The notes under the pieces are model-generated. The model was not told where the DNA came from. It worked only from the letters and a program-made list of their open reading frames with translations, and made no database searches. From Girardia tigrina (taxonomy: Eukaryota): DNA of 64,000 nucleotides. Positions 6,646-8,315 of the stretch are shown here, piece by piece. The DNA is taken from NCBI GenBank assembly GCA_001938485.1, contig MQRK01214350.1, positions 1 through 64,000 on the forward strand, in the 5' to 3' direction. The position numbers and the translations under genes are program-made. How positions within the stretch are numbered: the first letter of the stretch is position 1; each line of letters starts with the position of its first letter.

Positions 6646-6742
6646 TGTAATTATAATTATAAAAACAATCTTTATTTAAATCGATTTTTAAATCTTTTAT
6701 ATTTAACTTTCATATTTATATAATATAAGGAATGTAGCTACA
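6646..6742 (-). repeat. Candidate short 3' LTR of a Gypsy remnant
   Basis: Minus strand: purine-rich GGTGGGGCTAG directly before TGTAG...; ends ...TTACA with AATAAA inside; ~100 nt after the GPY/F-containing ORF. No partner LTR found. Confidence 0.45.
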
Positions 6743-6837
6743 CTAGCCCCACCATTGTAAGTGGAGCGTTACGTTGTTTCAAACACTTTGAAAATTATGT
6801 TCGAATCTTGATTTGATTTTGTTACGGACTTCGTTAT

Positions 6838-8315
6838 TTAAATGTGCGAAATCAAATTCCTCAAATGGCTTTTTTGCACAAAATCTGATTCGTTTCTGGT
6901 TTCAATGCAATGTATGATCAAAAGGAAAGAATTTTTTTGATGTTTCACAATTTTGTATGGTCCGTCGTATCTGCCAGTTATGTTATCTCTGACTAAAGCT
7001 CCAAAGTCAGAGAACGTATTTGTAAATGTTTCATTTATTTCCTCAGTTAAAAATTTGTAGATGTTCTTAATTTGACCTACGTAAGTGATGTTGTTAACTT
7101 GATTTTGTTTTTTTATAAATGGATGAAATTCCTTTTGATAATCGTGTTTTATGCAACTACTGATGTCTGTGGTGAAAGCCGTCTCTTGATTTGAAATATG
7201 AAGATTTGTTTGGCTAAGAACATGATTTTCTTTAATTTCTTCGTTTTGCATGTAATTGCCCTTGTGGGTTCTGGATGATAAGTTTTCAGTCGAAATGGTC
7301 TGTACAGTCTTGTTCTGAAGTGTTTTGTTAAAAGTTTTAACGTCAGTTTGAAGAATATGTAAAATTTCGTGTCCTGAAGCACTAGTCATTGGACTTAACA
7401 AATGTTTTGTGTTAGGTGTAACATAAGGAGGAGAAAGACTCTGGGATTTTGTAGTAGCCACCCCTTTTAATGTTTGAGCAGTCGTATTAGAAATATTATT
7501 ACTAGAAGATTGTGAAGAAGATTGAGGAGCTGTTGTTAATCCAGCTAATGTAACCCACGGTGCTGCAGTGGTCGAATCAGCAGACCCCGGTCTATTTTGT
7601 AGAGATGCCACTTGTTGTGCATAATTAGGGTTACGAATTACGGCGGCCGGAATTTGATGGACGTAATGAGGTTGCGGTAAATACATCGTTGTGGTTCGTT
7701 GAGGTAACATCATAGTTGCATATTGTGGAGATAACAATGTTAAAGCTGAATAATGTTGCACAGGAACCTGACATAGAGTTGATCCATTTTACAAAGCAAA
7801 TGGAACTGGTCCATTATATGAAACTGTTCCAGAAATTTCTTGTCGAGGATATAAATGTTTCTTTCTTACAGCTTGTTTAATGTTCAATTTTCTCTCTTTA
7901 AAGATCAGATTCATTCTTCGTGAGTTTTTCAGCAATTTTTTGATTTTCAAAATTCACAAATCACAAATAGCTTCTTTTCGTTAATCCCATACGATCATTT
8001 ATTATATTTGCGTATTTAATTTGACCATAACTCGAAAAGAAATTTTTTAATTCGTCCTCAGTTGTATTTGATGTGAGTCCCACAAAAATTCTGTTTGGGA
8101 TAAGTGTACCAATTTTCGGTATTGGTACGTGAGAAAAAGAATTGAGCTGATTTATTTGATTATGTTTCGCTTTTTTTCTAGCTTGGAAAATTCTTAATGC
8201 TAATGAAGAGTAATCAACATTGTTTTGTACACCGAACAATAATTTTTCCAATATATTTGATAGAAAATTATATTTTTCATTTCGCCATGATATATTTTCT
8301 TGTTGATCTTGATAT
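6838..8315 (-). pseudogene. Gypsy integrase C-terminal region with a boule-like insert
   Basis: EKLLFG...DYSSLALRIFQARKKAK (post-core integrase-like helix) precedes the RRM; ALVRDNITGRYDGPYKIVK (GPY/F motif) closes ORF 6838-7761. Confidence 0.6.
7380..8125 (-). pseudogene. boule: Intronless boule/DAZ-family RRM sequence (captured retrocopy)
   Basis: PKIGTLIPNRIFVGLTSNTTEDELKNFFSSYGQIKYANIINDRMGLTKRSYL*FVNFENQKIAEK / NLIFKERKLNIKQAVRKK...GPVPFAL*NG follows the BOULE RRM pattern (GTVIPNRIFVGG...KLNIGPAIRK...HNG), then a P/Q/Y/T-rich tail. No introns; two stops and one frameshift. Confidence 0.85.

Follow-up and report, generated by a model that had tools for sequence, protein, structure and literature searches.

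A multicopy LTR element family of Girardia tigrina with spliced host boule and a cut/cux-like arm in one reading frame

How does a spliced copy of a germ-cell regulator come to lie inside a retroelement, and what might it do there? The question is raised by 64,000 nucleotides of Girardia tigrina DNA (contig MQRK01214350.1, positions 1 to 64,000; hereafter the window), in which the initial annotation saw a boule-type RRM captured within a Gypsy integrase. In the present study, the segment 8353-6561 on the minus strand was found to be a broken, 5'-truncated copy of a non-autonomous Gypsy-type LTR element of about 2 kb. The frame of this family runs from an ATG through an arm resembling host cut/cux, spliced boule and a low-complexity linker to an integrase-type GPY/F tail. 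The window copy is without the 5' LTR, the primer site and the ATG, keeps only the 3' LTR and the purine tract, and is disabled by stops at 7963 and 7791 and by frameshifting indels at 7907 and 6898. The two minus-strand open frames that had been noticed at the outer junctions were confirmed and extend, stop to stop, over 7961-8485 and 6838-7788; the first of them ends in half an RRM.

The boule origin of the cargo was borne out in detail. The RRM occupies 7857-8119 on the minus strand, with the stop at 7963 and the frameshift at 7907 inside it, and is followed by the post-RRM part of boule and a Q/P/S/T-rich segment (7341-7856, minus strand) that contains the family-frame stop at 7791. RRM_1 was recognised by Pfam in the window frame (E=1.8e-7) and in the unbroken copy L011 (E=1.6e-15), whose RRM is 65% identical to a schistosome boule-related protein. 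The named best protein matches of the cargo were boule proteins of flukes and tapeworms; DAZL structures matched over the whole RRM domain, yet they were not top-scoring. The window segment corresponds to host boule cDNA 92-878, with 80.5% identity over 790 nt, and all seven host exon junctions within it, a 19-nt micro-exon included, are joined gap-free, those at window 7858, 7839, 7732 and 7441 exactly. The host gene itself is intact on contig C226319 and has nine GT-AG introns in its mapped part, so far as the mapping extends. On these alignments, the cargo belongs to the Boule/DAZ family of RRMs and is descended from host boule. The host boule and cut genes were 79-89% identical to proteins P0001 and P0051, and the element-like proteins P0049, P0050, P0052 and P0053 were close to families of the G. 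tigrina genome; no chimeric protein of another species was evident among 48 protein matches.

All carriers that have a 5' end start at host cDNA 92 (range 89-104), behind a short in-frame linker (8120-8139, minus strand) that is common to all boule-carrying subfamilies, as judged by the shared start and the junction word. The 3' junctions differ between families and are all in frame, at cDNA 878 in family A, to which the window copy belongs, at 947 in family C and at 993 in family B; most family C copies also have an internal deletion of 735-833 that stays in frame. The cargo ends within the coding region and has no poly-A tail. In the AlphaFold model of the first 186 residues of L011 (mean pLDDT 75.6, pTM 0.45), one long helix at 11-78 and an RRM fold, with pLDDT mostly 80-95, are joined by a low-confidence link.

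Other boule-derived sequence was found elsewhere in the genome. A second repeat (L061, L062, L064 and L153-L162) contains the spliced 3' end of boule with its 3' UTR, from about 998/1078 to 1497 of the host cDNA, at 74-83% identity to the host and with broken frames; decayed integrase-like sequence, judged by eye, follows it. It may stem from an independent capture, or it may be what was lost from the end of a longer first one. At L063 2510-3473, beside an assembly gap, 123-bp direct repeats (99%) surround a 119-nt piece that is 100% identical to the last exon of host boule, which is either a very recent capture or a mis-join. In the neighbourhood of these elements are also long uninterrupted frames, for a 2-hydroxyacid dehydrogenase and for a protein kinase, as well as fragments of an HSP90-like ATPase (L063 296-1900, minus strand; L032 2554-3681, plus strand; L030 12-419 and L048 2-589, plus strand); these pieces are possible further retrocopies.

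The flank upstream of boule had been taken as an integrase post-core segment, and this reading did not survive. The arm (8140-8353, minus strand) matched the start of an internal exon of host cut/cux at E 5e-27 (phmmer), whereas its best match among integrase frames had E 1.1; an integrase origin of the arm was therefore rejected. Host cut/cux is single-copy, with its upstream exon, splice acceptor and other splice sites present, and in two runs loose contig ends show its spliced form. The same segment occurs in the CUT-domain proteins P0051 and P0054, which come from other sources. Identity of the arm to the host exon was 90-91% in A2, B, C and E and 81% in A1. A search of the 50% protein library with the arm gave four matches, and among 120 Cut proteins no homologue was found outside planarian-type Cut beyond P0054. 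Since the match begins and ends inside the exon and related elements have another N-terminus, we infer that the arm was taken from the host. With no homologue among the non-planarian Cut proteins searched, the opposite course, an old exonisation of the element arm into the cut gene, would also be compatible with the match. A crude heptad score was lower for the arm than for the Gag coil (0.85 vs 1.05), so that a coiled coil in the arm is a prediction only.

The other end of the frame has kept its retroelement character. Behind boule lies an element-derived low-complexity linker (7006-7340, minus strand), which is kin to boule-free elements (65-73% to L028, L029 and L030), and then the tail with its stop codon (6779-7005, minus strand, with the frameshift at 6898). 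The GPY/F motif proposed earlier holds, as the tail at 7005-6782 is GPY/F-like and related to integrase tails by profile: a profile of six natural carrier tails, run against 299 frames, found the integrase C-termini of the helper loci, eight of the nine with E between 4e-8 and 1e-4 and the remaining one with 0.043. The purine tract and the TG...CA LTR were likewise found where they had been suspected, the tract at about 6767-6743 on the minus strand, with an upstream motif common to the autonomous family, and the 182-bp 3' LTR at 6742-6561. This LTR is 95% identical to the 5' LTR of L005 and also matches both LTRs of L002-L004. The proposed integrase-Boule fusion has to be redrawn, for the frame contains no catalytic integrase, only a GPY/F tail of about 75 residues, and its 5' flank is cut/cux-derived. 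In the 542-aa and 464-aa frames, RRM was the only significant Pfam family, with neither RT nor catalytic integrase, and Pfam gave no name to the arm, the knuckle region or the tail of these two frames.

The sole catalytic integrase at the locus is a separate plus-strand fragment at 8347-9062 (zinc-binding part and core, broken; Pfam Integrase_H2C2 E=5.5e-12, rve E=1.3e-4), which stands head to head with the carrier, with an overlap of about 7 nt. It comes from an autonomous CHCC-Gag Gypsy family encoding RT, RNase H and integrase; the piece is 75-93% identical to the pol of this multi-copy family, whose flanks differ from those in the window. A LINE-type processed pseudogene with a 5' inversion was considered for this layout and rejected, because another element family is the source of the plus-strand piece, and the carriers have LTRs and no poly-A. 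The same plan was seen at L029 717-2400, where a 5'-truncated non-autonomous element meets an inverted integrase fragment head to head, and the two cases may reflect a recurring strand-switch between carrier and helper. Elsewhere in the window, related RT-bearing retroelement remnants at 164-1253 (plus strand) and 15559-16800 (minus strand), 79-87% alike and in opposite orientation, are by their motifs presumably Penelope-like. Decayed frames at 3461-5513 gave no match in a Pfam search, and their motifs resemble what we take to be pogo/Tigger transposase; about 600 bp of near-pure (TA)n lies at 17184-17782.

Boule-free relatives in the same genome show what the arm and the RRM stand in for. 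In family F and L029, a Gag coiled coil and a CX2HX9CX3C knuckle are homologous to the autonomous Gag end (E 7e-10 and 1.3e-9), and in family E the cut arm is followed by the CHCC knuckle (E 5.8e-8 to helper Gag). Family E is a boule-free, multi-copy element of about 1.8 kb with 5-bp target duplications; its members are L025-L027, L031-L033 and 18 of the 20 loci L126-L145 (all except L139 and L142). In the carriers, the cut arm is followed by boule, the knuckle is absent, and no match to the helper Gag coil or knuckle was obtained. From these positions, the coil was likely exchanged for the cut arm and the knuckle for the boule RRM. Full autonomous elements of 5.5-7 kb (L181 and L182) have the primer site of the carriers, a CHCC Gag and the same purine-tract motif; the CHCC Gag knuckle is present in helper Gag (L181-L183) and in the boule-free families, and the GCTCC...GGGGG-CTT/A-TGTA layout is shared by the carriers with L169, L170, L173, L176 and L177. 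The LTR interiors of the autonomous family differ from those of the carriers. With primer site and purine-tract motif in common but different LTR interiors, this family or a relative is likely the helper.

The check proposed at the outset was to count the chimeric junctions, and a single copy with a poly-A tail would have meant an ordinary pseudogene. The 1.43 Gb assembly was searched, and the 16-nt word across the 5' boule junction occurred exactly 157 times, whereas its reversed control did not occur; amplification is thereby supported. Window 8353-6561 matched at least 39 other contigs (best 40 of 1153 candidates scored), and the RRM half gave at least 150 matches (150 of 150 scored, best of 373 candidates). 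The word is exact in 73 of the 93 carriers sampled, which makes a total of about 200 copies likely; some of the contigs counted are duplicate haplotypes. The carriers occur in both genomic orientations.

Intact copies are about 2.03 kb long and have TG...CA LTRs of 165-185 bp; between these lies a single frame, with the primer site ahead of it and the purine tract behind it. The ATG sits some 20-45 nt past the 5' LTR, after the primer site, and the 5' arm starts about 7 codons later. A 5-bp target duplication was found at 37 of the 62 two-LTR loci; by hand tally, these are 27 of the 47 boule-type loci and 10 of the 15 without boule. Duplications of 4 or 6 bp were not seen. The primer site is complementary to the 3' end of tRNA-Leu(CAG) (seven pattern matches), for which two genes were called, in one of three loci scanned. 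These stand in tandem at L178 1136-1338, and their small contig (C18147) also has a boule-carrier RRM match. With two LTRs, a primer site, a purine tract, target duplications and intron loss, the family is a non-autonomous LTR element and an LTR-mediated retrocopy.

The frame is 460-540 residues long across the family. In one sampled set, the whole 542-aa frame was kept in 1 of 17 two-LTR copies (L011); L040, of another subfamily, has a 464-aa frame. LTR identity was about 90-97% in subfamily A1, to which the window copy belongs, whereas in A2 and C most values were 93-100%. Long stems and star-like bursts were seen in a tree of the host sequence and 66 natural copies, the subfamilies have new LTRs and spread in several waves, and recombination between them is evident.

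Is the captured protein, then, of any use to the element? This was addressed by comparing replacement with silent changes. On lineages confined to the element, 13 replacement and 22 silent changes were fixed in the RRM, against 218 and 69 among private changes (p=1e-5); changes common to all carriers were left out, since they may lie on the host branch. The silent excess is present among transitions (p=2e-4) as well as among transversions (p=2e-3) when each is tested separately, and a tally polarised by hand with older copies gave 19:26, replacement to silent. Relative omega between subfamilies, from net divergence, was 0.16-0.28 in the RRM for 5 of 6 pairs and 0.35 with a wide interval for A1-A2, and 0.6-1.3 in the low-complexity part. 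The aromatic positions of the RNP motifs are kept in 70-72 of 72-73 copies. Stops made up none of the 156 shared replacement variants and 55 of the 985 private ones (p=4e-4), where shared means present in at least three copies, and families A, C and E were pooled after removal of 3 near-identical duplicates from the 50 A loci. These patterns point to purifying selection on the RRM along element branches.

The signal is not uniform. The same test on boule outside the RRM had no effect (p=0.14 and 0.28), and constraint on the GPY/F tail and the cut arm is weak or inconsistent. Lineage A, the window's own, taken alone has seven replacement and five silent changes and does not differ from neutral (p=0.18); it carries G50R in RNP1 and other radical changes. 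The stem joining A, B and C has four replacements and no silent change. Within families, the comparison of shared with private variants reached p<0.05 in a single region test (RRM of family C, 0.046) and was flat for A2, a comparison that is underpowered because the families are star-like. A few homopolymer frameshifts are common to 3-6 copies.

The neutrality of private changes would suit a passenger that was captured once and kept without use, boule mRNA being abundant where the element replicates, and the other intronless host genes and the second boule-tail repeat in this genome agree with such accidents. The silent excess in the RRM and the absence of shared stops make this account quite improbable. 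A stronger competitor holds that the open frame alone matters. A long frame would evade nonsense-mediated decay or keep the terminal tail, with boule as a spacer and the RRM spared because its misfolding is costly or because it was re-copied from host boule mRNA. It draws on the absence of shared stops across the whole frame, also in the boule-free family E, on the in-frame state of the three 3' junctions and the internal deletion, on the relaxed lineage A, and on the good spread of boule-free families without boule. What it leaves poorly explained is the concentration of constraint in the RRM and not in the rest of boule. Moreover, older element copies retain the host base at the sites of nine silent BC changes, which places these changes on element branches, and A, B and C have common derived residues across the RRM, which argues against wholesale re-copying. 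We regard it as the less probable account, though one to be taken seriously. With the RRM under apparent purifying selection, a role for the fusion protein gains support.

Benefit could also fall to the host, with a few expressed master copies making a Boule-like protein in germline or stem cells, or being tolerated there, and all other copies as by-products. RRM constraint would fit, as would transcript-like contigs and the germline-restricted expression and gamete-essential role of Smed-boule in a related planarian, in the part of that report used here (PMC4858218). In the data, 11 of 12 listed runs, from six studies, contain part of L011. Contigs across the junction of boule and the 3' arm were present in four runs of four studies (four examined), and in at least one run (X8) a contig spans the 5' junction and extends more than 31 nt to either side of it. 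Only X5 is labelled RNA, and the contigs of the four runs may include DNA; neither the depth of the contigs nor the lack of cover at the LTR ends was read as expression level or as transcript ends. These contigs hint at transcription of the element rather than prove it. The constrained branches lead to insertion bursts with star-like tips and fresh LTRs instead of to a single old fixed locus, and host boule is intact, so that host benefit is improbable.

The initial annotation had also raised piRNAs against host boule. Small RNAs from the copies might tune the host gene, as Pxyfem does with Masc according to the portion of the report cited (PMC9674220); more than 157 copies in both genomic orientations, and 84-160 30-nt windows per copy within three mismatches of host boule, would provide material. 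The divergence is about 20%, however, and in six copies only 0-11 of 643-815 30-nt windows came within one mismatch. The cargo lies in sense orientation, and protein-level constraint would be unexpected. Silencing of host boule by this route looks weak on such counts, and we consider an RNA-level effect very improbable.

A parallel to this arrangement is found among retroviruses. Defective oncogene-transducing retroviruses have a helper-dependent LTR genome in which host cDNA is fused in frame to Gag-derived sequence (gag-onc) and selected as protein. The boule family would likewise depend on a helper and has host cDNA in frame with Gag-derived sequence, seemingly selected as protein; it differs in having no envelope or infectious stage, in being inherited through the germline and in carrying an RNA-binding domain. 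Among small LTR elements, TRIMs have a very short, non-coding interior, and the boule element, some 2 kb in size and holding a long frame in which stops are selected against, falls outside that definition. The ta-TRIM of taeniid tapeworms is also a small non-autonomous flatworm LTR element, for which the cited part of the report gives no captured gene or own protein (PMC4558846); the boule element has a frame of 460-540 residues.

The route of capture is known. LTR-mediated retroposition in animals, as far as the cited part of Tan et al. 2016 describes it (PMC5131818), lets a partial spliced mRNA replace part of an internal frame, with short similarity at the switch points; several genes can be combined, and secondary retroposition as a non-autonomous element occurs. 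Insertion sites were few there, whereas the boule family has at least 157, with several subfamilies, new LTRs, one fusion frame and apparent selection on the cargo. Maize Bs1, in the same portion (PMC5131818), is an LTR element with exonic pieces of several host genes and identical switch points in its copies, but it is a plant element of 1-5 copies, while here an animal germline RNA-binding domain sits at the Gag knuckle site. Pxyfem of Plutella shares with the carriers a multicopy, LTR-captured cDNA of a reproductive regulator, acquired through template switching; what is cited of it describes a W-linked, clustered source of antisense small RNAs (PMC9674220), and the boule family is dispersed, sense, about 20% diverged and seemingly protein-constrained. 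Turmoil-1 of C. elegans, in the section cited, is an animal transposon with a host RRM and a second gene fragment (PMC2572040); it is a DNA transposon with the pieces in inverted repeats, not in a retroelement frame. CsRn1-like Gypsy elements, as partly described in PMC2582038, have the CX2HX9CX3C knuckle of the helper and the boule-free relatives, and a GPY/F tail. Their tRNA-Trp primer site was not found, the helper site fitting tRNA-Leu(CAG), and the duplications are of 5 bp here and 4 bp in PwRn1 (PMC2582038). Copy number, serial domain swap and cargo selection appear to be new, no counterpart being found in the literature searched; that literature, with few subscription papers and without supplements or repeat databases, did not mention a flatworm LTR element that had captured boule or cut.

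We consider it very probable that the family arose as a deletion derivative that underwent two captures and several waves of spread. An autonomous CHCC-Gag element would have given internally deleted forms that kept the Gag coiled coil, knuckle, linker and GPY/F tail, a descent suggested by the observed homology. A piece of cut/cux mRNA would then have replaced the coiled coil, in a direction that the match suggests. Next, template switching in the particle would have put boule mRNA, present in germ cells, in the place of the knuckle. That an LTR element took up spliced boule mRNA, as had been proposed, is upheld by the observed intron loss, and template switching would be the putative mechanism; a short similarity between the boule 878 junction and L029 was noted by eye. 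Capture in germ cells fits Smed-boule, the putative counterpart of the host gene, whose mRNA is germline-restricted according to the part of the report cited (PMC4858218). Further switches would have produced the three in-frame 3' junctions and the new LTRs, and the observed waves would have used the enzymes of a helper, whose identity is suggested by the shared primer site and purine tract.

As to function, a protein made from element RNA would bind that same RNA through the RRM and, in germ cells, make it more stable, better translated or more readily delivered to helper particles, and lineages with an intact frame and RRM would have left more copies. The pattern of RRM changes points to selection, which makes it likely that the element uses the borrowed protein for its own spread. 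We therefore lean, somewhat, towards a cis-acting borrowed RNA-binding protein whose RRM is the predicted stand-in for the lost Gag knuckle. GTT words, when counted, were not clearly enriched. A bolder and clearly more tentative version would have the Gag-derived protein rebuilt domain for domain from host parts, with a transcription-factor helix for the coil and the Boule RRM for the nucleocapsid knuckle; the RRM would mark element RNA to be translated in germ cells and packaged, and copies in their hundreds could compete with host Boule for its targets.

Work on this planarian has to reckon with more than 150 boule-like copies, about 80% identical, which can mislead the annotation of boule and the mapping of reads as well as in situ probes and RNAi. 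As the cargo derives from a conserved germ-cell regulator, the copies could have an effect on fertility as well. In the usual description, host genes captured by animal LTR elements are passengers of low copy number or raw material for host genes. A cargo that stayed in frame through several waves, with constraint on its RRM, makes it testable whether a transposon gains from a captured host protein, and the boule-free sister families of the same genome are a natural control.
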